The notes under the pieces: model-generated
Seen by the model: the letters and a program-made list of their open reading frames with translations, nothing else
Told to the model about the DNA's origin: nothing
The model's database searches: none
Part shown: positions 16,348-32,000 of the stretch, piece after piece
How the letters are laid out: each line of letters opens with the position of its first letter
Position numbering within the stretch: position 1 is the first letter of the stretch
Assembly (NCBI GenBank): GCA_042852035.1
Contig: BAAFHK010000003.1
Location: 210,001 to 242,000 of the forward strand
Length of the DNA stretch: 32,000 bases
Direction: 5' to 3'
Source of the DNA: Candidatus Saccharimonadota bacterium
Lineage (GTDB): Bacteria > Patescibacteriota > Gracilibacteria > BD1-5 > UBA2023
Translations under genes and position numbers: made by a program

Positions 16348-16423
16348 GCACCCATAGCTCAATTGGAAGAGTAGCGGTCTTCGAAACCGTTGGTTGTAGG
16401 TTCGAACCCTACTGGGTGCACCA
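16348..16423 (+). tRNA. tRNA-Arg (anticodon TCG), CCA encoded
   Basis: Acceptor GCACCCA/TGGGTGC, anticodon arm GCGGT-CTTCGAA-ACCGT, T arm GTAGG-TTCGAAC-CCTAC. Confidence 0.85.
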
Positions 16424-16449
16424 TAAAATCCTCATGGTTTCAGGTAAAT

Positions 16450-16533
16450 GCCCAGGTGGTGGAATGGTAGACACGTACGTTTGAGGTGCGTATGCCTTCG
16501 GGTGTGTGGGTTCAAGTCCCATCTTGGGCACCA
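16450..16533 (+). tRNA. tRNA-Leu (anticodon GAG), long variable arm, CCA encoded
   Basis: Acceptor GCCCAGG/CTTGGGC, anticodon arm TACGT-TTGAGGT-GCGTA, variable arm TGCCTTCGGGTGT, T arm GTGGG-TTCAAGT-CCCAT. Confidence 0.9.
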
Positions 16534-16546
16534 TTCAAAAAAATTG

Positions 16547-16578
16547 AATCCCGTTTGAAAAAACGGGATTTTATTTTC
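16547..16578 (+). terminator. Intrinsic terminator after tRNA-Leu
   Basis: AATCCCGTTT-GAAA-AAACGGGATT perfect 10-bp stem followed by TTATTTT. Confidence 0.55.
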
Positions 16579-16581
16579 GGC

Positions 16582-16608
16582 TTGCTTTTTCCTCTTTTTT
16601 ATTATAAT
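16582..16608 (+). promoter_or_regulatory. Candidate promoter for tRNA-Cys
   Basis: TTGCTT (16582-16587), 15 nt, TATAAT (16603-16608), followed by GCCCGAGC. tRNA starts 19 nt downstream. Confidence 0.35.
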
Positions 16609-16626
16609 GCCCGAGCACTCGAGTTT

Positions 16627-16704
16627 GGCACCATGGCAGAGTGGTCAATTGCAAGGGCCTGCAAAGCTCTAAAGTCATCGGTTCAAATCCGATTGGTGCC
16701 TCCA
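16627..16704 (+). tRNA. tRNA-Cys (anticodon GCA), U73 discriminator, CCA encoded
   Basis: Acceptor GGCACCA/TGGTGCC, anticodon arm AGGGC-CTGCAAA-GCTCT, T arm ATCGG-TTCAAAT-CCGAT. My hand fold leaves a 6-nt variable region. Confidence 0.85.
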
Positions 16705-16854
16705 TACCAACATTTTGGTCAATGAAATTTCTATAATTTTCTCCTACCATAGAAACCTATTAGGTAAAGCAAAGTTAAGAAATGGAAAATGACATAAGAA
16801 ATAAGATGAATTGTAAAAACAGAGGAATAAACAAAAAATCTCCAACCTTTTGAT

Positions 16855-16873
16855 AGGGGGGAGATTTTTTTGA
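16855..16873 (+). repeat. Direct repeat copy 1 (attL-like): AGGGGGGAGATTTTTTTGA
   Basis: Identical 19-mer to 26684-26702. Also forms the descending arm of a hairpin with AAAAATCTCC (16834-16843). Confidence 0.7.
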
Positions 16874-16877
16874 GACT

Positions 16878-17624
16878 TTACTTTGCTTTATTTGCTAAAT
16901 CTAATATCCATTTTTTAGTGATTACCATTAAATTCTTTTGTTTATAATTTTTATCAAGATACCAAACTCTCAAAGTTTCAGATGGTAAATTATAAATATC
17001 TAATAGCTCTTGTTTGGTGAGTTTTTGTTTGTTATATGTTGTGTTAGGTTTCTCACAAGCAATTTTTTTTATTTCAGTCAAATCTTTATTGAGATCATCT
17101 ATATAACTCTTATTTGCTTTTAGTTTTTTATATCATAAAGCATAGTTCTTATAATCATTTAAGAGCAGTCAGGTTATTTTATTACATCTTGTATCATAAA
17201 GTATTTGAATGTTATTACTTTGATTATTTTGTATATGATTTCATAGTTTTCTTAATAATCCTTCCCTCTTCTTCATTTTAATAATTCACTCAATGGCAAT
17301 AGTATATGAGTAATTTGAATAAGTTGTTATATTATCAATGGTATCTGCTTTAATCCACATTCAAGCCTCATATAATCCAGCAGCACAAATTAAAGGTGCT
17401 ACTCATACTTTGGTAGCCTCTTTTAATGTCATTGTTGCTAACTCCAAAACTCATTCTTTAACAATTTCAGCATCATCATTACTATATAATGCTTCTGCTA
17501 ATCATAAATAAGGAACACAATCCTTTGCAACATCATTTGTGTATTCTGTTGCAGTTTTTGCATAGAGATTATTTGAAGCAACTAAAATGATAAAAGAAAT
17601 TACTATTAGAAATATTTTTTTCAT
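16878..17624 (-). CDS. Secreted hypothetical protein (248 aa)
   Basis: ATG 17622-17624, signal peptide MKKIFLIVISFIILVASNNLYA. Reads through several TGA into track ORF 16878..17081; length is a multiple of 3. Confidence 0.55.
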
Positions 17625-17649
17625 AATAAAGAGATTAAAAAAATAAGAC

Positions 17650-17952
17650 CTAACTTTTATAAAATTTATAAAGTTGGTAAGGAATAAGAAGAGAGCCTAT
17701 AAGCATAGATAAACATAATTTTAAGAAGTTCCAAAATAACCAGAACCACCAAGTTCCAACAAGACCTATTGTTTGAGGCTTGTGTTGATTAATAAAACTC
17801 CATCAGAGAGGAATTCAAGTAAATCAATAAACAGCAAGAATAGTTTCAGAAGAAGGGTTTCCTTGTTGTAATGAGGACATTAATCAAATTATTCAAAAGA
17901 CTAGTCATAACCATAGAGGTTTGAGTAAGTCCCAATTTCTTTTTTTATTCAT
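17650..17952 (-). CDS. Small membrane protein (100 aa)
   Basis: ATG 17950-17952 to TAG 17650-17652, six in-frame TGA. Trp-rich hydrophobic segments (GLVGTWWFWLFWNF). Confidence 0.45.
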
Positions 17953-18372
17953 AAAATATAAAAAGGTTAATGTTAAATGGATAACATCAACCTTTAAAAG
18001 AAATCAGCACTAAAAAAGGAGGATATATCCTAGTGAGTGCTGATTTCACATTTACATCTTCTAATAGTAGAGGAGGTTGGATATACCCTCCTTGTTTACT
18101 ACTATTAAAAAGACATCAAATTAGAAATTTGAGCAAGAAAAAAAGATGTTTTTGTGAAATCAGCCTGTGTATTCTATTTAAAGTTTCTTGTATTGCAAGA
18201 GCATACAGGGATTAATATATCAAAAATACCAAACAAAATAGAAAAAGAAATATAACTGCAAAATATAAAACTCTTCAAATAAAAGACAATGTAGTATTTC
18301 CAATCTCCACATTGCTTTTATTTTTTATAAGAGTTTTTGAGATAGTTTTGCATATTTCTTAACTTTCTATTT

Positions 18373-18684
18373 ATGCTTACTTCTATTTTTTGAAATACTA
18401 TTACCTTCTCTTTTAATACCCCTGTATCTGAAACAGGATTTTTATCAGAGAACTTTGATCTCACTAAAAAATCTGCTTATGCTACAATTTGAATACAAGA
18501 TTTGTTAAAATTCAAAAATGATATTCAACTACAATTTATCCTTTCTAAAATATTTTCTGCTATTAATGAAACTGCAAAAATTCAAAAATTAGATTATTTC
18601 CAAAATATCAACATAAATTGAAATGATGTATGGTGCATAGATGATGGAAATACTATTTGTCTTATGTTAAAAGAGGAGTATTAA
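18373..18684 (+). CDS. Hypothetical protein (103 aa) upstream of mod
   Basis: First ATG after in-frame TAG 18343-18345; three TGA; TAA 18682-18684. Followed by the hairpin AGAGGAG...CTCCTCT and a T-run. Confidence 0.5.
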
Positions 18685-18750
18685 GCTCCTCTTTTTGCTT
18701 TTTTTCAATTTTTCATATAATCTAGGCAATTTTACTAATAAGTTAAGAAA

Positions 18751-20742
18751 ATGGCTCTAAATCAACAAGAAAAAGAATTTCTATTGCAACTTATTAATGA
18801 ATGAAAAGATATACCAGAAGATTTCAAATATAAACTTTTTCCTACTCTACAAAAGGAGTATGAGTTAAGTTATGCAGGTAAGATGAGAAAAGAAGATCTT
18901 TTTGCTAATGAAGATGGTGTTTTTCCTGTTCCACTTCAAGTAGAAAAAACTTTTAATTGAAATGAATATAAATGATTTGAAGATGGATGGAAAAATATGA
19001 TCGTGTTTTGAGATAATTTACAATTCTTAAAAACAATTTATGAGAATAAAGATGATACCATTAAAGATAAGATTAAAGGAAAAGTGCAATTAATATATAT
19101 TGACCCACCATTTGCAACTACTGATGAATTCCAAAATAAAGAATGAGCTAAGGCTTATAATGATAAAAAAATAGGGTCTGAATTTATTGAATTTCTTAGA
19201 AGAAGACTACTGATTGCAAGAGAAATACTTAGTGATAAGGGGGTAATATATATTCATCTGGATTGGAAAATGTCTCAATATATCAAAATAGTTTTAGATG
19301 AAATATTTTGAAAAAATAATTTTAGAAATGAAATTGCTTGGTGTTATAGTTGACCTTGAAAAAGCAGTAAATCTTTTATAAGAAAACATGATACAATTTT
19401 ATTTTATGCAAAAAATTGGAAAGAAAGCACTTTTAATATACAAAGAATAGAGCATAAATCATGAATTCATAATAGAGGAGCATATCTATGAAAGGAAAAT
19501 GAAGATGCATGAGAACTTGTTGAAAAACTTGAAGAAGAATGAAAGAGATTAGAAGATTGGTGGACTGATATATATACTGCAGACAGAAAAAGAAATGAAC
19601 TAATCTGATACCCTACACAGAAACCAGAAGCACTATTAGAGAGAATAATTATGGCAAGTTCTAATGAGTGAGACATAGTTATGGATTTTTTTGGAGGCTC
19701 ATGAACTACAATGGCTGTTGCAGAGAAATTATGAAGAAAATGGATTAGTTGTGATTTATGAAAACTAGCCTATTTTACAGAACAAAAAAGAATACTTACT
19801 ATTCAAGATAGTAAATCCCTATTAGATGAAAAGAAAAACTATTGAAAAAAAGCAAGGAGTTTTATGACCTGCACTCTATGAATGTATAACTTGAAGGATA
19901 CTCTTGATTTAGAATGGAGTAAGTATAAAGAATTTGTAGGAACACTTTTTGATATAGATATTAAAACTACTACTATTTGATGAGTTGAATTTGATGGGAA
20001 AAAGTGATCTGCTCCTGTAAAAATGTGGGACTATAATAAGCATAAGGATGCAAATGTTGATGAAACATATATTAATACACTTCATCAGTCTATTAAGGCA
20101 AAAACAAGTAGAGTTTATATTGTTGCCCCTGCAAATAATATAGGTTTTATTAGTGATTATTTTGAAATAGATGGAACAAGATACTATTTCTTAAAAATAC
20201 CTTATCAGGTTATAAAAGAACTTCATAAAAAATCATTTCATAAAATTAGACAACCACAAAGTAAGAAGAATGTAAATGATCTTGAAGAAGCAATAGGCTT
20301 TCACTTTATCAAGAAACCAGAAGTAAAATCAAAAATAGTTGTTTCTAATGATGAAATATGTGTAGAAATTTCAGAGTTTAGAAGTCAGTATTATAAAGAT
20401 GAAGAATGAAAAATATTAGAAAATTTTGAAACTCTATCTGCTGTTTTTATAGATGCTAATTTTAATGGAGATCAGTTTATAATGACAGATGTAAAATTTG
20501 CTGATGATTTATTGTCAAAGAAGAAAAAAGGTAAGAAGGTAGATGAAGATGAAGAGATTGATGCAGAATTAGATGAAGATGAAGAAGGGGTAAGTAATGA
20601 AGAGATTAGAGCAGAATTAAAAGAAACAGCAAATAAAGGATTAAAAATAATACTTCCAAGAAAAAAAGTAGGAGATAAAGTAATGCTTATCTATACAGAT
20701 ATTTATGGGAATGATTTTACAGAAATACTAACAGTCAATTAA
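18751..20742 (+). CDS. mod: Type III restriction-modification methyltransferase (Mod), beta-class N6A/N4C MTase
   Basis: Motif IV LIYIDPPF precedes motif I DFFGGS-G(TGA 19702-19704)-TTMAVAEKLGRKWISCDL. I count 23 in-frame TGA. In frame with track ORFs 20023..20409 and 20482..20742. Acidic C-terminal insert. Confidence 0.85.
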
Positions 20743-20743
20743 T

Positions 20744-23344
20744 ATGCAAGATATACATATTTTTAGAAATCAAGACCTAGTCTTAAAAGTTAATCCTACT
20801 TATGATCCTACAAAATTAAGATTAAAAGAATGGGATAGTTTTTTAGATAAACTTTGTTGAGATAGAGATTATCAGAAAGAAGCAATAAAGCAGGTGATTA
20901 TCTTTATGGTGTGAGGAAAATATAAAAAAATAGAGGATTTAGCAGAGGAGAATTATAAAAATAATCCTGAACTACAAATAAAATATTCATCTCTTGAAGA
21001 TTATTTACATAAATTACAAATTCAGGGAAAGTTATTTGCTAATATTGATCTTGCCACCTGAACTGGAAAATCTTATGTAATGTATGGTATAGCACAAATA
21101 ATGTTGGGATTATGAGTTGTAGACAGAGTATTGCTACTTTGTCCCTCTTTGACTATTGAAGCAGGGTTAAAAGAAAAATTTGAAAGTTTAAGTTGAAACC
21201 AGCAACTAAAAGATGCTATACCTGAAAACTCCATAATAAAAAATCCAAGAATTATTGATGCAAACCAAACCATTAAAAGCGGAGATATATGTATAGAAAA
21301 CATACATGCAGTATATGAAAAAACAGGATCTTCTATACAAGATAGTCTAAAATGAACTGGCAGTAATGTATTAGTTCTTAATGATGAATCACACCATATT
21401 TTTAATAAATCTTCTGATAAAGATGTTAAAAAATGGAAGGAGTTTTTAACTAATGATGATTTTTGATTTCAGTATATAGTTTGATTTACAGGAACAGCAT
21501 ATATTGATAATAACTATTTCAATGATGTTATATATAGATTTTCATTAAGAGAAGCAATAGAAAATAAGTTTGTGAAAAGTATTGAGTATGTAGCAAAAGA
21601 TGATAGTATTTGAAAATGAGAAAAATTTCAAAAGATCCATCAAAACCATATTGATAATATAGATAGATACCCAAAGATTAAACCTCTTACTATTCTGATT
21701 ACAGCAGATATTGAAAAAGCAGAAGAATTAAAAGATGATTTAGTTGAGTTCTTGATGCAAAAAGAGAATAAAAGTAAAGAACAGATAGAAGAAAAGGTTT
21801 TAATTATCACTTCTCATAAAGATCATAAAAGTAATTTACTAAAACTAAAAACAGTTGATAGCAAAGAAAATAAAACTGAATGGATTATATCAGTTTCTAT
21901 GTTAAGTGAAGGTTGGGATGTAAAAAATGTTTTTCAAATTGTTCCTTGGGAAGATAGGGCATTTAATTCAAAACTACTTATATCACAAGTTTTATGAAGA
22001 GGTTTAAGAGTGCCACCAGAATATGAATTACCACAACCAAAAGTGATAGTATTTAATCATGATGCTTGGAGTAGAAATATCATAGAACTTGTAAATGAAG
22101 TGTTGGAGATTGAAAAAAGAGTGGTAAGTGAGGTGCTTGATAGTTGAGACAGAAGTAAATATAATTTTGAAGTATTTAATCTAGATTATTCAAAAGAAGA
22201 AGTGGAAGTTGAATTAGAAACAAAAGAAAGTGTGATGAATTTTAGTAGAATATTTAATGAATGAATTAAATTGGAAGCACAGGTTGAGGAAATAGAAAAA
22301 TGAACTGTATTTGAGAGTTTAGGTTGAACTCAATCCCAGAGAGAAAAAAATTACTTGATTGAATATGCAACAACTTCTGTTGATGATATAGTAGATAAAA
22401 TCTATTCTGAATTTGAAATGAGGGATTGGGAATGAAAAGTGCTACAACTTAATCAAGAACAATATACTCAAAATAATCTACCTCCTAGAACAGTAATTAA
22501 GGAAATTATTATAAAATCAATGCAAAAACTCTGAATTAAGGGGGAAAGATTGATAGAAAAAAATAAAAATCATATCCTTTCAGGATTTTGAACTTTATTA
22601 AGAAAAAAGAATAAAACAGTTATTACAAAACTTAAAGTCAATGATCCTATACTAATAAAAACCATAGAAGTAGATAGAGAAAGTTTAGGAATTTGAAATT
22701 TTAGAAAAGATTGCACTGTATTTCTGACAACAAACTATTTACAGGAAGTAAATGAAGAACAAGGTGCTATTCTTTCTGAATTAAGTGAAGATGAAAGCCT
22801 CCCTAGAAGTGCAATCAAAGAGCAGAATGAGTATTTATTTAAAACACCCCTTAATGTTATCTTAACAAAATGAGAACCTGAAAGAAAATTTATTGAAGGT
22901 TTATGTAAGCAAGATGTTGTTGAAAAAATTAATTGTTGGATTAAATCGAGAGATAGAGGCTTTTATGGTATAGAGTATAGTTTGAGATATTGAGATAAAT
23001 GAAGTAATACAAGGAGATATACAAATAAAAAATTTAACCCTGATTTCTTTATTCAAATACAAAAAGAAGATATAAAATATACTCTTGTTATTGAAACAAA
23101 GATGGATTGAGATGATAGTGAAGAGAACAAAGCAAAATATAAATATGCATTAGAACATTTTAATAGATTAAATGAAGAACTAGAACAGAGAGGAATAAAT
23201 GAAAAATACATTTTTCATTTTCTTAGCCCCCAATGATATTCAACATTTTTTGAATATTTAAAAGATGGAAGAATATTGGAAGGACAAGAAAAGTATAGGT
23301 GTGCTCTTGAAAATAGCCTAGAAAATAATGAAGAGGAGCTATAA
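20744..23344 (+). CDS. res: Type III restriction enzyme Res subunit (SF2 helicase plus PD-(D/E)xK nuclease)
   Basis: ATG 1 nt after the mod stop (TAATATG). DLAT-G(TGA 21059-21061)-TGKS, LNDESHH, GFTGTA, SVSMLSEGWDVKNV, QVL-G-RGLR. C-terminal NPDFFIQ...LVIETK nuclease motif. 866 aa. Confidence 0.85.
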
Positions 23345-24091
23345 TAAGGAAATTGCATACTTCCCTGTAAAGTTTTCTTTTAGGATTTCTTCATATTTTT
23401 CTTTTTTATAATCCCAACAAGACACAATCAAAATAAGGTTCTTTTCTCTAAACAGAGGAAAGAACTTTTTATTATTCTTTCTAGTATTCATATCTTCATA
23501 TCCTAGTACTTTCTGATGAAACTGTTTGTATGAGTTCATATTTTCTAATTCAAGACAATAGGCTGTATTTCAGATACTTAATAGTAAATCTGGTATCATA
23601 ACAAAATCTAGATATTCATATTTAGTTTCAGGATTTTTTAACTCTGTTTGAAGTATTTTTTGGATTGTTTTTGATCCTGTAAAATATTCTGCTTTCAATA
23701 CAAAATCCTTATTTTTATTTCTAATCTTTCATAGGAAATAAACAAAGAGATCTCATAATAGTAGTTGATGATTATATAGGGTATAACTGGTATTATAAAT
23801 TGATGGTTCATATTTTATTCAGGTCTCATAATAAATCCTGTTTAGGACTATTTCAGTAGTATTTAGCATATAAATACTATACTGGCTTATACTTTTATAT
23901 TCTTGTTTCAGTTCTTTTATAAATCAATGCTTTTTCAGGAGGAGTAGCCTTATATTAAAGGTTTTATGTTGGGTTTCTGGACTAACAATATTTTTTAGAT
24001 TTCTAGAACTACAAAATCATAATTCATTTAAAGTATGAAATATTAACAAGTCCCTAGGTGTTAAAACTATATTTTCTCTGGTTTTATTCAT
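23339..24091 (-). CDS. Replication-relaxation-family-like protein (wHTH plus PD-(D/E)xK-like core), 250 aa
   Basis: Translated codon by codon from ATG 24089-24091. N-terminus LTPRDLLIFHTLNELGFCSSRNL; later HQLLLGD and MIPDLLLSIGNTAYCLELEN. Stop overlaps the res stop by 6 nt. Confidence 0.5.
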
Positions 24092-25538
24092 ACTTTTCTC
24101 AATTAGATTTTAAAAGTTTCTGTATATTTTGATCTCAAATATTTAAAGACTGTGTTAATATGCTTAAAGTTCAGTGGTTAATAGTGTCAAAAACAGAATA
24201 GAACTCTCATCTTTTGAGATTAACAATATCTTTTTCACTTATTGCAAACTTTTGCTCTAATCAAGAATTGGTAATAGGAACAAATAACTCTGCCTGTTCT
24301 GGTGGTAATGCAAAAATAAGTGAATAACTCAAATTATTTAGTAAATCCTGTAATTCTCTACTGATACTCTGGAATATAAACAACATATTTATTTTTTTCT
24401 TCCTGTGTTCATTTAGTATTTTCTCTAAAATATCTAACATATGATTTTTACTACCTTGGAGTTCGAGAAAACTTTGAAATTCATCACAAGTATAATAATG
24501 GCTTCATAAGTTGGGATTATTATGATTTTTACCTGCTCCAATGTGATATAAAATGTTTGTAAGGAAAGATATTACTACTCTTCTTTCTTGGGTATTGAAT
24601 ACTGAAAAATCAAATAGATATACTTCTGTTTGTTTCTTTTCTCAACTCATATAGTGTTCTATGTCCAATGTAAGTTCTTTATAACTTTTTCAATATCCAA
24701 AAGTATCTCCTAATCAAAAACTAAAATCTTTCAATTTTGTTAAACTGGTAATATGAGACTGTTTATCTACTTGAAGATCTTTAAGAAAAGTTTTTAACTC
24801 TTGGTCTACTCCATTTGCAAGTTGGAGTATGTCAGAATGAGTAGAAGAAAATAGTTTTTTTCTATCTTCATCAAGATAAGTAGGAAGTTTCTGGCATCTA
24901 CTGGTATAATCTAACAAATCATATAAATCCCTATAAGATAATAAAACATTGTCAGGATCTCTATGGTATCTTTCTATATTGATAACTATAAAACTTCTTA
25001 TAAGTCCCTCTAATACTTTTGTGTTTGAGGGTCAGAAAGCAGAGTAGTTAAATACTCATTTCAAAGAGGAGATATTATAGTTTACCCATTTATTTAAGTC
25101 TGTAATATCTTCTACAAGAGACAAAGCAAATAGTGGATTAAAGAAAAATGTTTTATCCATATAAAACCCTCTATATTTTTTATTATTTTCAATAGTTTCA
25201 TTGGAAAATCTAAAAATATCTCAATATCTGCTTAATTTTGGATTATCTATTAAGTATTCTCATAAAAGATTTAACAAAGGATTTATAAATGAGTTATGGG
25301 GATCAATACAAACAAAAGTATCTCCATACTTTGTATTATCTGGTTGAGACTGTTGTAAAATTGAAGATTTTATAGTAGAAAATAGGGTAGATACTAAACT
25401 GTATGTTTTGCCACTTCAAGATTTTCAGAATATTCATCAATGACCGGATTTTAAAATATTGTAGTTGAGTGATAAAAGTGCTTTATCTTCTAGTATATGG
25501 GACTTCTGGACTGTCCCTATGGGTATAATGTGAGACAT
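24084..25538 (-). CDS. HerA/FtsK-superfamily (T4CP-like) P-loop ATPase, 484 aa
   Basis: PIGTVQKSHILEDKALLSLNYNILKSGH-G-GIF-G(TGA 25425-25427)-KS-G(TGA 25416-25418)-SGKT Walker A; HYYTCDEFQSF Walker B. No N-terminal TM. Stop overlaps the downstream start (ATGAATAA). Confidence 0.6.
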
Positions 25539-25572
25539 AGTATAGGCTGGTTAAGTGATATGTTATATTGTA

Positions 25573-26475
25573 TTAATAAAAATTAAGATTTTTGATTAAA
25601 TTACATTCAAAAAATCATGAACTAGGTAAAATTATGGCTTTATCCTGAATAGTTCCTGAAATATGGGAAAGTGGTAAAAATAGCCCTTGTGATAATAGTG
25701 CTTCCGGTTGAAGTAGTCTTTTATACTGTGGTATATAATCTAAAAATGTTTTATATTCAGTTATTGAGTAGGAATTATACAGAGATGCATATAGTCCAAG
25801 GTTCTTATACAAAATACTTTTAATATCCCTATATTGCAGGTTATGTGATATATTAAATTGAAATAGAAACATGTTCTGGCTTTCAGTAAAAGAACTTATA
25901 AAACTCTCCTGCTCCTTTTCATTCATATTTTTACTTTTCTGGGTATATAAATAATCCTTTACTAATGATGAATAAGATCCCTTTGAGAATGAAAAGAGTA
26001 TTTTAATAACTTCATTTTCATTAATGAAGGGCAATATTTCCTGTATGAATGAACTTTTTATAGATGAGGAGGTTGTAAAGTCTCAGGCTCATAAAGCACC
26101 AAGTTTCTTAATTTGTAATACAGAGTGGTTATTAAGTCAGATTTTATAAATATGCTTGTATGATTGTCTTAATATGAAATCCCTTTTTATGTCTATTGAA
26201 AAACTGATCTTTCAGTTGTAGAGTTTGATAAAAAACTGCATTATATAATTAATACCTTCAAGACTATTAGAAAATATATATTCATCTATAAAAACTCTAT
26301 TTTTAGCCTGATAGCAATGTGTTTCCATTCAAAACCATAGATGAGGGAGGTAGAAAGCATTTAAATCATTCTTGATGGAATTTATAAGGTTTTCTCAAAA
26401 GTTGGTTCAAGGATTGATTTTTAAATAGAAAAGTTGATGCTCTGGAAAATATGGAATATTTGAAATTTGAAACAT
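25573..26475 (-). CDS. Hypothetical protein (300 aa), first gene of the minus-strand trio
   Basis: ATG 26473-26475. Track ORF 25615..26034 extended both ways through TGA; TAA 25573-25575. No motif recognised. Confidence 0.5.
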
Positions 26476-26560
26476 GGAGATCAAAATTAATAAAACAAAT
26501 AATCATTATATTAATTTTTAGAAACTATGGATTATGTCATTGTATATTCTTCATTACCTA

Positions 26561-26688
26561 CCCCTGTAATTTTTAGACTTTCTTTTATTTAAAAGGAAAA
26601 GAGCCTAATAGGTCATAACTTAAAACTTATGACCTATTAGGCTCTAACCACACCTTATTTATAGTGGAAAGTCTAAAAATTACAGGGG
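26561..26688. repeat. Nested perfect palindrome (22-bp outer arms, 19-bp inner hairpin)
   Basis: Outer arms CCCCTGTAATTTTTAGACTTTC (26561-26582) / GAAAGTCTAAAAATTACAGGGG (26667-26688). Inner arms AGAGCCTAATAGGTCATAA (26600-26618) / TTATGACCTATTAGGCTCT (26627-26645), 8-nt loop. Confidence 0.9.
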
Positions 26689-26702
26689 GGAGATTTTTTT
26701 GA
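26684..26702 (+). repeat. Direct repeat copy 2 (attP-like): AGGGGGGAGATTTTTTTGA
   Basis: Identical to 16855-16873. Flanked by the inverted half-sites GTCTAAAAA (26671-26679) and TTTTTTGAC (26695-26703). Confidence 0.7.
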
Positions 26703-26748
26703 CTAAAGGAAGAAAAAGATATACTTGATATTAATTAATGTAATTATT

Positions 26749-27783
26749 ATGACTAGATTAATAGATGGGGTAAGGGAGGCAGGATTGGAACAAGGAACAG
26801 ATGGAAGAGTAAGCAAAGAAAAAGTAAATGAGATGTTAGAGTTTTTTAGTAAAGCATTTTGAGAAGATGCTATATTATCTGTATGAGGATTTGATAAGAA
26901 ATTAGTTGATGCTGTTAAAGAAAATGACAATATCATTAAAAGATTATTACAATCAGAATTAGAAAGAAATTGTAGATATGAAATGAATATAAGCACTTCT
27001 AATGTTAAAGAAGTTATTGAGTGGATTGATATTATCAATAACAACCAAGAAAAAAATGGTTGAATTATCTGAAAACAATTTAGATTTACTGCTAGTATTA
27101 TTGAGGCATTACTTGCATTTTTAAAACTCTATCAATCTGCAAATATTGTTAATCAAAATGAAAATGGAAGAGAAAAAGAAATAATTCTGGTTTTGATTGT
27201 TAAGACTTTAAGGTATGCAATAGGTTCTGGAAAGAATGGTTTTACAGGAATAAAGTCTGATTTATTTTCAAAGTTTGAAGAAGTATTGCATAGGATTTTT
27301 GATGATGCTGATATTGAAACAGATGAGAAAACACAACTTATTTTTCAGTGAAGTGCAGGATCTTATGGAAATGCACCAAAAAATAATGTATGGATAGAAG
27401 ATTTTATTAGATCTGTTTCAGGAGATGGCTGAAATGTATTAGTTCATTTTTTAAAAAAATCACAACTCAATAAAACAGAGTTATTATTATATACTGATAA
27501 AAATATTGTAGAAGTTATCATTGAATATTGAAATAACTTTATATTTATTCTTACAAATAGTAGAGAATGGAAAAAGGAGGCAGTTTTACTTTATAAAACT
27601 ACTGAAAATATCTTGCAGGATCAAGTTAATAGATGATGAATTGAAAAAATTATTAATCTATTTCTTCAATGAGGTTTACCAGTTGAAAAGAATGATAATC
27701 TAAAAGTTATTAGTAGAAATGATATTTTAGATAGAAAGTTTATTGCAGAAGAAGACTTTGGTAAAATTATTCAAATTTCTTAA
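26749..27783 (+). CDS. Hypothetical protein (344 aa)
   Basis: I checked every codon 26749-27783: no TAA/TAG, 11 TGA. No recognisable motif. Confidence 0.55.
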
Positions 27784-27822
27784 TTTCCTTTTATTAAGGT
27801 GGGTATGGGTATTTTTTAAATT

Positions 27823-29376
27823 ATGGACTTACAAAAAAAGATTACAGACACTCTGGATTTACAAATAAATGCTGATGATATTTTATATTCAAATATTGAT
27901 AAGTTAGGCTTTTATTTTAAGTCATCAGAACTATTCTGATATTTTAAATCAAAAGATCCATTTCCAGATAAAGAAGAAGTTATTACTATCTGAGATACAA
28001 AGTATAATTTTCTAGTTTATCTTTCAGATAAAGACTTGAATGGATATGATAAAAAACTATGACTAAAAATAGAATATAGAGGGGAATATTATGAGGTTAT
28101 AGATATTCTATTTAACATAAAAGAAAGTAGATATTTATGTGTTTTTCATGGAAAGTTGTGGAGGTTTTCAACTCTAAAAGAGTTTGGATTTTCAAATCAA
28201 ATATTAATTGAATTTATATCAAAAAACTTTACAGAGATACAATTAAGAGAAATTCATATTTGTTTAGATGTAGAAGAGAAAGAAGATTATCTAACTAGGA
28301 TTAATGAATATATTAAAAACTATGTTCCAAAGGTATTCAATAAAGATACCTACAATTTTAGTAGTTGAAATTTATGAAGACAAATTGAAATAGGTTTGCC
28401 AGACAGAAAGAATAATAAAGAGTTTTTTTATAAAATTTATAATAAGACTTTACAGGCTAGGAAGATGTGAATTGATAAAATATATGTTGATTATTGTTTA
28501 TCTACTGAAAAGAATGTGTTTAGATATGAAATAGAGTTTAGACAAAATATAGCAAAAACCATTAAATTAGAAGACTTAAAGTTAATCTGACCTATACTAG
28601 AAAATAAGAAACAGATGCATGCAGGGAAGTATATTTTGAATGAATGGATTTGTAGAACTCTTATTTCATATTTTGTAGACAAACAAAAATTTGATTTTGT
28701 GTTTTGACAACTCAATATTGAGAATGTGAAACTTAAAAGGTCTGAAAATAGAGCCACAGGTTCAGTTGGCAAAAGAATAAGTGATTTAAACCTGATAGGA
28801 CAGCTAAAATCTTTAAGAACCCAAGCAAAGAATATAGAAAGCACTACTTGAATACCCTTGAAGAACAACTTTGATAAGTTAGATGAAATTATAGGAGAAA
28901 GTCAGGATTACAGATATTATATCACTATTTATAGAGGAATTTTCAGGACAATAAAAAACCATTATGAAGAAAATGAGGTAAAGGATTTTGATGAACTTTC
29001 TGAATTGATAAAGGGGGCTACTACCTATGCACTCAATTTTCTAAAAACTGATTATAACAACTTCTTTAAGATTATAAGATGATGAATTAATAGGAATGCT
29101 GATAGTGTAATAGAGTTTCTTGCAGATAATGAAAACTCTTTAAGTGAATTGATTTATTTTTATTACTTTTGAAGATTAAGAGAATGAATATTGTTTGATT
29201 TCCTAGATGTTCTAAAAGAATGAAATATGCCATTATTTCAAAAATATTTTGAAGATGATAAGAAGTTAAGAGAGAGTATTGCAAATAAACAAAAATCAAT
29301 AAGTATGCTGAATGATGATAGTAATTTATCCTTTGATGATTACTCAAAGTCAGTTTTTAATATATTTTATAAATAA
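27823..29376 (+). CDS. Rep_trans-like rolling-circle initiator / MOB_T-type relaxase candidate (517 aa)
   Basis: I checked every codon. LREIHICLDV, QIEIGLPDRKNNKEFFYKIYNK and VFRYEIEFRQN resemble the R.D...D, ..YdK and R.E.e.R blocks of the replication initiation factor (Rep_trans) family as I recall them. Confidence 0.5.
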
Positions 29377-29387
29377 TCTCATTTTCT

Positions 29388-31286
29388 ATGGAACAATCAA
29401 AGAAAAAAAGAGTAGGAATATACATTAGAGTTTCTACATTAGACCAAGCAAAAAAAGGAACTTCTCTTGAAGATCAAGAGCAGAGTTTAAAATTATATAT
29501 ACAAGCAAACTCAATAGATGGTTGGGAACTTGCTGAAAATGGAGTTTACAGAGATGATGGAATTAGTGGTTTTAAGGGTATAGCAGATAGACCTGAATTT
29601 GATAGATTAATGAATGATGTGAATGACAAAAGATTAGATATTGTTTTGGTATATAGAATAGATAGACTAGCAAGAAATACAGAATTACTGCTGAATACTG
29701 TTAAGAAATTTAAAGTAAAGTGAGTGCAGTTTGTGAGTATGAGTGATAGAATTGATACAGATACAGCAAGTGGGAAGATGCTACTTGCTATACTAGGTGC
29801 TATGGCTGAAATGGAAAGGAACTTGATTTATGAAAGGACATATGCTTGAAAGATTAGAAAATTAAGTATGGGTTATGCTTCCTGATGATGATTTGATTTA
29901 CCACTTGGTTATAAAAAATGAGAAGATGGGAAGATAATGATTGATGAGCCATATAAAGAGTTAATCCAAGAGATTTTTGATCTTTGTACTGGGGAGAAGC
30001 ACTTTACACCAAAAGAAATTGCTGCTGAATTATCATCAAGGGAAGAAACTACTTGGTGGGATAAAAAAATGGCAAAACTTAAAAAGAAACAAGTTAAAAC
30101 AGGTGTCTGGAATGCAGATACAGTAAGAAAGATACTTCTCAATCCTATTTATAAATGAGTATACTATTTTTGAAAAACAAGAAAAGTGCTTGCAGATAAT
30201 GAAGAAGATGAAATTACTGTAAAAGTTCCAGAAGAAGAATGGCTACCAGTTCCTATGCCTTGTGGTTGAATTATTACAGAGAAACAATGGGAAGATGCTA
30301 AATATCAAATTCAAAAGATTAATAAAATTAATAGAGGAAGATGAAGAAGCCATATCTTTACAGGTCTAATTAAGTGTGGGTTTGACTGAATGAGTTATAT
30401 TTGTTATAGGTCAAAACAGAAGAAAGTTGAATACTTTTATTATAGATGTGGTGGAACAAATGCGTCTAAAAATGAGAATAAAAGAAAAGATACTGATGTA
30501 GGAAATATTGATATGCCTTTGTGTAATAATCTACAAGTTCCTGAATTAGAACTTTATAACTACTGTATTGATATTATTACAAGGTTCATAGAAGAACCAG
30601 AAGCACTATATAAACAAAAAATAGGGAATGATGAGGAGTTTAAGAAACAAAAAAAGATCCTTGAAACAAAAATAGAGGAAGATAAGTTAAAAATTAAAGA
30701 ACTTGAAGTTACTATAACATCATTGTATTATCAGAAATCAAAAGATAAAATAAATGCTGATAACATACAAAATGTGCTTGATACATACACACAAGATAAA
30801 GAAGCAGCATTGAAAAGACTTGAAAATAATGAAAAAGATTTGCTAAATTCAGAAAATCAGTTAAATTCTGGCAAGCAAATGAAACAGTTTGCTGAGACTT
30901 ACAAAGATAAACTTGCAAATCTTACAGAGGAACAAGGAACAGAACTTATTAGGTTGTTAGTTGATAGGATTGAAGTTAAAGGAACGTTAATTACAGTATT
31001 CTTTAAGTTCAAACCACACCCAGAGAGTTTTACACATAGTCAAACTCTAAAAAAAAACTCTAAAAAAATAGAGGGGGGAGATTTTACAACAAGTTCTACA
31101 CCAAACAAGCAGTCTCTCCAACATATATGCAGCCGTAGTTCAGTTGGATTAGAACGCCTCCCTGCGAAGGAGGAGGTCACAGGTTCGAGCCCTGCTGGTT
31201 GCACCATTTCAACTCATAGAAGACTCTTCAGTACCATTTTTTGGCTCTGGGGAGCTTTTTTTAGGTTCGTACTCATCTATACTTAA
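29388..31286 (+). CDS. Large serine recombinase; ORF has no stop before the element end and reads through tRNA-Arg
   Basis: VGIYIRVSTLDQ...YRDDGISG...RPEFDRL...VLVYRIDRLARN catalytic domain; recombinase domain; HIFTGLIKCGFD-G-MSYICY...YFYYRCGG zinc ribbon; coiled coil. In-frame stops 29388-31283 are all TGA; first TAA is at 31284-31286. The functional C-terminus is probably near 31030-31090. Confidence 0.8.
31072..31085 (+). repeat. Direct repeat copy 3 (attR-like): AGGGGGGAGATTTT
   Basis: 14-nt identity with copies 1 and 2. Left flank CTCTAAAAAAA resembles the copy-2 left flank GTCTAAAAA. Lies inside the recombinase ORF tail. Confidence 0.65.
31129..31206 (+). tRNA. tRNA-Arg (anticodon GCG), CCA encoded
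   Basis: Anticodon arm CCTCC-CTGCGAA-GGAGG (perfect), D arm GTTC/GAAC, T-loop TTCGAGC. The acceptor stem has two G-U pairs and the T stem has one A-C mismatch in my fold. Confidence 0.75.
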
Positions 31287-32000
31287 TCAAACCTTGGAAG
31301 GTTGGAACCGATAGTTAATTGCTATTACTGGTCTTAAGTTCTCACGTGTAACCACTATATCTCTCACAAGAATATTGATAATTTGCTTTTTTTGAGAAAA
31401 GGAGAGATTCTCAATTTTTGTCTCGATTGTTTTAGAAAATTCCTCAAGAGAGATTTTCATCTCTTCAGCTTGTACTATCCCATCAAGCTTCTCATCGAGA
31501 TCCTGTATCTGTTTTTCACAAGCTTCTCTATCCTGAGATATTTTTGCAAGGACTTTTTCATATTTCTCTTCGGAGAGCATACCTTTCCTGTAATCTAATT
31601 CAGTTGATAGATCAGCATCTTCGAGCCTTTCAAGTTCTATCTGACGACGTTCACGCTCTTTAGTATATGTGTCGTAATCTCTACTGTCGACAGATTGCTT
31701 ACGGAAGATATCATATAATTCCTGAGGTCTTTTAATAAAAGTCTCAATATGTTCCCATACCAATTCCTCTAGACTCAATCAAGGAATATCAAAGTTTTTG
31801 TAATACTTTCCTCGGATAGTTCGAGCTGGACGACGGTAACTTATTCCACCTTTTGTTCGACTCACTCATACAAATTTCCGACCAGTTTCAAGATCGGTTA
31901 CTTTTCTGGAGAGCAAATATTCTACGTTTCCACCTCATCTGACAGGATCCTCCTCACTCTCTTTGATGAGATTTTTTGCAAGCTCGAAGGTGAGATCGTC
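31149..32000 (-). CDS. Second large serine recombinase, C-terminal part (5' end beyond window)
   Basis: Coiled-coil C-terminal region (track ORF 31287..31778), continuous upstream through TGA to the window edge (..GRKFV-G-VSRTKGGISYRRP..). The track stop at 31287-31289 is TGA; the first TAA is 31149-31151, inside the tRNA on the opposite strand. Confidence 0.65.

Follow-up and report, generated by a model that had tools for sequence, protein, structure and literature searches.

The window analysed here, a stretch of 32,000 nucleotides on contig BAAFHK010000003.1 of a Candidatus Saccharimonadota bacterium (Gracilibacteria), contains a low-GC (guanine plus cytosine) integrative island of 14,416 bp (16705-31120) that carries a type III restriction-modification (R-M) system as cargo. 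GC content falls from ~0.37-0.5 to ~0.27 between ~16700 and 31100. Transfer RNA (tRNA) genes, called with ARAGORN and Rfam, flank the island, with tRNA-Cys on its left and tRNA-Arg(GCG) on its right, and a recombinase gene lies at the right edge, downstream of two genes that we call p344 and p517. Under translation table 25 this gene is a single open reading frame (ORF) of 632 codons with 11 in-frame TGA codons, which crosses the third copy of a 13-bp repeat and then the whole tRNA-Arg gene before it meets its first TAA or TAG at 31284-31286. A reading made from the letters of this DNA alone, hereafter the sequence-only reading, had already described this missing stop, which we reproduced, and had suggested that the ORF runs across the attachment site of a mobile element so that excision restores a stop. 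We consider it likely that the gene is indeed split by integration, at a core CTCCA, with the attachment site of the element (attP) lying inside the recombinase gene and two isoforms of the enzyme being made according to the state of the element.

Judged by its domains, the enzyme is a large serine recombinase and not a tyrosine integrase. Residues 11-162 match the Pfam Resolvase family (PF00239, E 2.9e-38) and are followed by a Recombinase domain (PF07508, residues 190-309, E 1.6e-14); a zinc ribbon (Zn_ribbon_recom, PF13408) scores 24.7 bits, just below the cut-off of 25.3, and is present in most homologues. The catalytic domain also matches the TP901-1 integrase structure 3bvp in the PDB (E 9e-25), and a stretch at residues ~400-500 has a high content of K, E and L. 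Because in-frame TGA codons are frequent in the host genes of the left flank, which terminate with TAA or TAG, and because TGA aligns to Gly at conserved resolvase positions, we conclude that host and island both use code 25. The affinities of its S1 protein assign the host to Candidatus Gracilibacteria. The 3' part of the ORF (30390-31286) is open under table 11 too, and the absence of a stop is therefore independent of the genetic code. In a collection of 5.8 billion proteins the closest homologues are 93% (P0001) and ~50% identical (P0002 and P0003; P numbers denote homologous proteins), whereas phage and plasmid collections yielded only relatives of ~30% identity or less, and a search of viral contigs found no further copy. 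In contigs L003 (112-2076) and L004 (374-2338) gene calling divides the recombinase homologue into two genes of 141 and 511 amino acids, and a stop may interrupt it.

The position of the right junction comes from a comparison of six elements: the window copy (W) and those on contigs L001, L088, L002, L003 and L089 (L numbers denote compared contigs, which were reached through homologues of the recombinase and of the island proteins p344 and p103). All six share the pattern ..GGAGATTTT-N8-TTCT..AGT(C/G)TCTCCA and then continue into six different sequences. By BLAST, colinearity with the window spans 26600-31120 in L001, whose sequence beyond that point is unrelated, and extends to 31120 in L088 and to 31121 in L089. 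The P arm, the element-side sequence before the core, is the same in the three contigs of the L002 lineage (L002, L003 and L089), two of which, L002 and L089, hold elements that are 98% identical in different flanks. GC content is 0.27-0.28 within the elements and 0.34-0.39 outside them. The common point of divergence corresponds to 31120 of the window and lies inside the ORF, and in none of the six is there a stop upstream of the junction between element and host, which is more than chance would give. The central proposals of the sequence-only reading, that the ORF crosses the attachment site and that the integrated gene has lost its own stop, are borne out by this comparison.

One might suspect instead that the missing stop reflects a chimeric assembly or a dead element whose stop has mutated. 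The right junction of the window is in fact covered by no independent contig, as the contigs from DRR350542 that match it at 99.5-100% stop short. We nonetheless regard this explanation as highly improbable, given that the same architecture recurs in six independent assemblies from five samples, that nearly identical copies in different flanks imply recent mobility, and that the recombinase ORF is intact across 577 codons.

A different question is which sequence serves as the core. According to the sequence-only reading, the 13-bp repeats GGGGGGAGATTTT were the cores, and on excision copy 3 would become joined to either copy 1 or copy 2, which would restore a stop after ..GGDF. The repeats are real: three exact copies begin at 16856, 26685 and 31073, far beyond chance (three matches in 0 of 100 shuffles), copies 1 and 3 fall close to where the low-GC island starts and stops, and the early stops that the joins would create, after ..GGDFFETLLCFIC and ..GGDFFD, are arithmetically right. 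The homologous elements, however, do not break at copy 3. L001 and L088 stay colinear with the window for 35 bp past it (L001 without a single difference), and the L002-lineage contigs keep the frame and the motif over these 35 bp, all diverging only after TCTCCA; because the six elements part only at that point, we place the crossover 35 bp downstream of copy 3. The pattern formed by copy 3 and these 35 bp was found in none of 185,579 species genomes and thus offers no host target, and copies 1 and 2 make poor partners, the former being the 3' arm of a terminator-like hairpin and the latter an internal sequence conserved upstream of p344 in four relatives. Recombination at the 13-mers would also leave the coding-type conservation of 16705-16804, described below, unexplained. 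We therefore give next to no credence to this version: the 13-mers are real and conserved, yet they are not the site of crossover. Copy 3 does lie within the P arm and is able to pair with the core.

For the left end, we propose the 3' end of tRNA-Cys as the partner site, in place of the 13-mer copies. We do so because of the arrangement in a related genome, the drop in GC at ~16700, a second element, the frame that stays open across the join and the symmetry of the reconstructed attP. In L018, a contig of a related metagenome-assembled genome, tRNA-Cys and tRNA-Arg(GCG) stand 17 bp apart, and the window is collinear with it as far as 16704 and again from 31120, where the homology of host DNA resumes. 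The second element is on L092, which holds the left end of a related island directly after a tRNA-Cys. CTCCA is found at both junctions (16700-16704 and 31116-31120), and when attP is reconstructed from the two ends its dyad centre falls on the TC of CTCCA in both lineages, as the best or joint best centre. In the other lineage no centre within 120 bp scores better than this one (15/28, P 0.002). A run of 9 nt (GTGTCTCCA) is, moreover, common to the L002-lineage P arm and the tRNA-Cys end present in L008.

Joining the right end of the island (..CAG TCT CTC CA) to 16705 keeps the recombinase frame open for 33 further codons, to a TAA at 16802-16804, and the same join in L092 gives HTGILIKEVSLIFSYHRNLLGKAKLRNKDLSE and a TAA after 32 codons. 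This is the only frame open in both joins and is in phase with the P arm; the other two are closed. Between W and L092 the tail has 13 nucleotide differences, distributed over codon positions 1, 2 and 3 as 4, 1 and 8, and the changed codons comprise four synonymous changes and three exchanges among V, I and L. In the 40 nt beside the tRNA, random placement of an equal number of substitutions attained the observed BLOSUM score without creating a stop in 0.085% of cases (P = 0.00085). The tail is identical at 22 of 27 positions, as against 51% over the whole protein, and so equals the best-conserved segment. By these measures the split-off tail is under purifying selection. The sequence-only reading had expected the conserved end of the protein near VFFKFKP and a restored C-terminus of ..FFETLLCFIC or ..FFD; comparison of homologues instead shows conservation up to the crossover and on into the split-off piece. 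What stood of it was the central idea, including an excised form with a different C-terminus and its own stop, while its site, its partner and its restored C-terminus did not. Downstream of the restored stop lies a terminator-like hairpin with a folding energy of -18.4 kcal/mol (z -3.5), which is kept in L092 (-25.4 kcal/mol, z -5.7).

The same tail bears on a neighbouring candidate, in which the crossover would take place at TCTCC (16740-16744), between TTTTCTCC and TACCATAG, instead of at the tRNA-Cys end, and the gene would end in ..QSLLP, with a TAG three codons on. TCTCC is likewise common to the right junction, the identity between W and L092 rises to ~98% from 16733, and the same short ending in LLP and a stop would result in both lineages. 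In this scheme, however, the 40 bp before TCTCC would be host DNA, and they evolve as coding sequence in the recombinase frame; the six right flanks would all have to start with A by coincidence; dyad symmetry is not significant there, unlike at the centre on the tRNA end; and in other Gracilibacteria nothing similar follows tRNA-Cys. We therefore hold this candidate to be quite improbable and retain the tRNA-Cys end as the site.

Two other candidates for the left end were set aside. The 8-mer TCTCCAAC occurs at 16839 and 31115, but a match of this length in short regions is weak; its left copy is a hairpin arm that reads TCTTCCCCC in L092, and the preceding 130 bp have island character and are in part coding. 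L093, considered as a third left junction, has a left end adjoining a 16S gene that could not be aligned above shuffle level and was not used. As to the other junction, the Logan contigs L088 (15,121 bp) and L089 (14,665 bp) stop 25 and 21 nt after CTCCA, distances that equal k-1 = 30 (with k = 31 assumed) minus the suffix shared with the tRNA-Cys end (5 or 9 nt). Ends at these positions would be expected if an empty site co-occurs in the samples, and they hint at polymorphism or active excision.

From these pieces we can propose how the element would work. A large serine recombinase would recombine at the 5-bp core CTCCA, with TC as the likely crossover dinucleotide and attP situated within its own gene, 33 codons upstream of the stop. 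The predicted attP of the excised circle reads ..AACAAGCAGTCTCTCCATACCAACATTTTGGTC.. and the predicted empty host site (attB) ..GATTGGTGCCTCCAACATATATGCAGCCGTAG... In the circle the gene would be intact, with 610 codons, the conserved C-terminal tail, a TAA and then the terminator hairpin. Integration at the CCA end of tRNA-Cys would leave that tRNA intact and would carry the final 33 codons, together with stop and terminator, to a position immediately behind tRNA-Cys at the island's left end. The bulk of the gene, at the right end, would read into host DNA and specify 632 residues with an accidental tail of 55. The predicted products are thus 610 amino acids in the excised form and 632 in the integrated form. 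The structural side of this proposal, namely the two junctions, the divided gene, its conserved tail and the repetition of this layout in six elements, is well supported by the comparisons. Beyond it, we infer that these isoforms differ in activity, stability or directionality, which would give the split a regulatory role, akin to the state sensor of the sequence-only reading, by tying the recombinase to the state of integration.

Several observations weigh against this proposal. The left junction is known from two elements, W and L092, both adjoining tRNA-Cys, and L092 and L002, which come from one sample, are possibly different elements, their identity to L089 being 86% and 98%, respectively. 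The dyad signal of the reconstructed attP is weak in W (12/28, P 0.046), and no dyad symmetry was found in attB. Pattern scans of viral, metagenome and genome sequences with the P arm and the P' block, from the two sides of attP, recovered neither a circular junction nor an empty site of the same species, nor any additional copy. Finally, a block of ~48-50 nt within the tail (16733-16783 of the window and 7497-7547 of L092) is ~98% identical, in lineages whose recombinases are ~50% identical and whose adjoining tRNA-Cys genes are only 74% identical. Such DNA identity exceeds what protein constraint would require, and some of it may come from a DNA or RNA element or from a recent exchange between elements.

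It is also possible that the split is real and has no regulatory meaning, the overlap of attP and the 3' end having arisen by genome compaction, with a dispensable tail and host-encoded tails that are tolerated noise. The host-encoded tails measure 55 residues in W, 14 in L001, 8 in L002 and ~63 in L003, lengths that look random (the last occurs in two contigs with the same junction, and the contigs of L088 and L089 end before a stop). No homologue conserves the read-through tail of the window (31121-31286), and since an open run of 54 codons is not unusual in shuffled host DNA (P ~0.07), we attribute its length to chance. Changes just upstream of the crossover are mostly non-synonymous, the conserved tail motif was not found in the other, more distant recombinase matches, and two unrelated recombinases (LSR2 and P0004, described below) also run into flanking tRNA genes, so that reading past the junction may be nothing unusual wherever TAA and TAG are the only stops. 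Set against this is the split-off tail itself, which is among the best-conserved segments of the protein and evolves as if under purifying selection. On balance we think an explanation without regulation has somewhat less than an even chance of being right. Tail conservation argues that the tail matters, and the random host tails argue that the integrated isoform would be at best a tolerated variant. That integration acts as a built-in isoform switch, with the full enzyme made from the excised circle only and no separate directionality factor involved, strikes us as unlikely.

If the recombinase gene is split as we propose, there may also be consequences for the neighbouring tRNA gene. The insertion parts tRNA-Arg(GCG) from a tRNA Arg-Leu-Cys cluster (16348-16704), which it adjoins in L018; only 8 nt now separate it from the recombinase operon upstream, which has the same orientation, and a search of the interval found no sigma-70-like promoter. 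The operon, deprived of stop and terminator, would be transcribed into tRNA-Arg, and this read-through could supply transcription to a gene cut off from its own operon. Release of tRNA-Arg by RNase P, 8 nt past the crossover, would in turn leave the recombinase messenger RNA without a stop codon and make the protein a target for tagging by transfer-messenger RNA (tmRNA). By this route, too, recombinase activity or directionality would depend on integration with no separate directionality factor.

The tRNA-Arg gene is also approached from the other side. To the right of the island the window takes in the 3' part of another large serine recombinase gene, LSR2, which belongs to a further element past the window edge and has ~25% identity to the first recombinase family. 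Under code 25 it has no stop before its putative junction (~31271/31272, collinearity with L018 ending at 31271) and reads antisense through the terminator of tRNA-Arg into the tRNA gene itself, which is thus sandwiched and entered by both recombinase ORFs. A further recombinase, P0004 (30% identical; L005 10001-11911 and L006 8399-10309), reads past the edge of its island into an antisense tRNA-Phe. Besides a type III R-M system, the P0004 island encodes an Abi_C protein and a nuclease of the OLD family; its other end was not found in the stretch of L005 that was compared. With P0004 as a third lineage, the read-through trait may be common in these code-25 genomes.

Table 1. Features of the island and its surroundings (positions within the 32,000-nt window)
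Feature	Position	Strand	Remarks
tRNA-Cys(GCA)	16627..16704	+	intact; 3' end is the B arm of attL, the left junction site; host-type GC ends here; collinear with L018
attL core CTCCA	16700..16704	+	last acceptor-stem base, discriminator and CCA of tRNA-Cys; putative crossover dinucleotide TC at 16701-16702
Split-off 3' end of recombinase gene	16705..16804	+	residues 578-610 of the predicted excised form (HTNILVNEISIIFSYHRNLLGKAKLRNGKGHKK); TAA 16802-16804
Terminator-like hairpin and T run	16833..16870	+	28 nt past the stop of the excised form; 3' arm holds 13-mer copy 1 (16856-16868)
Island interior	16878..26475	mixed	table-25 ORFs and Pfam matches
p248, p100, p103, p250, p300	within 16878..26475	-, -, +, -, -	island interior
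Type III R-M mod	18751-20742		island interior
Type III R-M res	20744-23344		island interior
HerA/DUF87-like ATPase	24084-25538	-	Pfam match; HerA-like p484 of the island backbone
Perfect 19-bp palindrome, 8-nt spacer	26600-26645		upstream of the p344-p517-recombinase operon
13-mer copy 2	26685-26697		upstream of the p344-p517-recombinase operon
p344	26749-27783	+	upstream of recombinase; operon p344-p517-recombinase
p517	27823-29376	+	upstream of recombinase; operon p344-p517-recombinase
Recombinase gene, element-borne 5' part	29388..31120	+	residues 1-577 plus 2 nt; holds 13-mer copy 3 (31073-31085) and the P arm of attP
attR core CTCCA (right junction site)	31116..31120	+	right end of the island
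Host-encoded read-through tail	31121..31286	+	55 residues counting the junction codon; 8-bp spacer, tRNA-Arg, trailer; stop TAA 31284-31286
tRNA-Arg(GCG)	31129..31206	+	host gene; B' side of the original attB
LSR2, 3' part of second large serine recombinase gene	31272..32000	-	other element to the right; ORF stop 31149-31151

The rest of the island is without recognisable phage genes (Table 1). A backbone of p103, p250, the HerA-like p484, p300, p344, p517 and the recombinase is kept across relatives, and p344 and p517 are syntenic with the recombinase in L001, L002, L004, L088 and L089; neither Pfam nor PHROGs assigned a function to p344, p517, p300, p248 or p103. One slot swaps defence cargo: it holds type III mod and res genes in W (18751-23344) and L088 (1961-6593) and an MvaI/BcnI-type type II R-M system in L089 (2788-6618) and L092, to which L089 adds an OLD-family nuclease. 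The palindrome upstream of the operon is conserved together with 13-mer copy 2 in L001, L088, L089 and L090, and could be a protein-binding site or a terminator of minus-strand genes. The 10-mer ACCTATTAGG occurs both in this palindrome and in the conserved block of the split-off tail region (16765-16774).

The closest parallels to this arrangement lie outside the family of the enzyme. In the fusellovirus SSV1, an archaeal virus whose Int is a tyrosine recombinase, integration splits off the N-terminal part of the gene. The island resembles SSV1 in having attP within the recombinase ORF, pieces of the gene at both ends of the element and a tRNA gene as target, and the comparison with fusellovirus int drawn in the sequence-only reading is apt in this respect; unlike SSV1, it has a serine recombinase, resides in a bacterium and removes only the C-terminal 33 residues, which host sequence replaces. 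Tn4451 offers a different kind of state dependence, as the promoter of its tnpX gene is assembled at the circle junction. Like Tn4451 and Tn5397, with their recombinases TnpX and TndX, the island is an element with a large serine recombinase for which excision as a circle and joint-dependent expression are predicted; in Tn4451, however, the dependence lies at the promoter, the 5' end, whereas in the island it would be the 3' coding end, with its stop and terminator, that is reassembled.

Among serine integrases themselves, those that have been characterised have attP upstream or downstream of int (PMC4068962). We found no serine recombinase with attP inside its own gene in the literature searched, a limited library, and the Streptococcus Javan prophage records, which end at the int coding sequence by annotation convention, are uninformative on such an overlap. 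With TP901-1, A118/LI, Bxb1 and phiC31 the island enzyme shares the resolvase and recombinase domains, probably the zinc ribbon, a gene at the edge of the element, and a short core common to attP and attB with a non-palindromic central dinucleotide at an imperfect dyad. It departs from the characterised systems in the proposed position of attP, which would fall within the reading frame 33 codons ahead of the stop, in its target, the CCA end of a tRNA, and in the code 25 of its host. The attP of myxophage Mx8 is placed within the int coding sequence, integration creating a new 3' end (intP becoming intX), and the prophage enzyme, with its different C-terminus, is reported to have altered properties (PMC6070905, citing Tojo 1996 and Magrini 1999). 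There the enzyme is the tyrosine integrase of a phage, unlike the serine recombinase of the 14-kb island described here. In mycobacteriophages with integration-dependent immunity, attP lies inside a gene whose viral and prophage products differ at the C-terminus, which couples stability or function to integration (PMC8092301). In that case a repressor gene is split by a tyrosine integrase and the product is truncated by a nearby stop, whereas in the island the recombinase itself is split and lengthened. By analogy, the island may work as the SSV1 and Mx8 systems do, outside their families, and what would be new is a serine-recombinase variant of this known placement of attP within a gene.

Serine integrases are major tools of genome engineering, and control of their directionality is generally ascribed to a separate directionality factor and the coiled-coil motif. 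If our interpretation is correct, a change in the C-terminus of the enzyme brought about by integration would represent an unexplored layer of control for these proteins, and the conserved tail would be a segment worth testing. The findings also have a bearing on annotation: where a recombinase gene sits at the border of an island in a code-25 genome, its predicted product may wrongly include a long spurious tail that extends into a tRNA gene. Beyond the enzyme, the analysis defines a mobile element with a predicted attP, a predicted attB and a tRNA-Cys target in the Gracilibacteria, a candidate-phyla lineage with an altered genetic code whose mobilome has barely been described.

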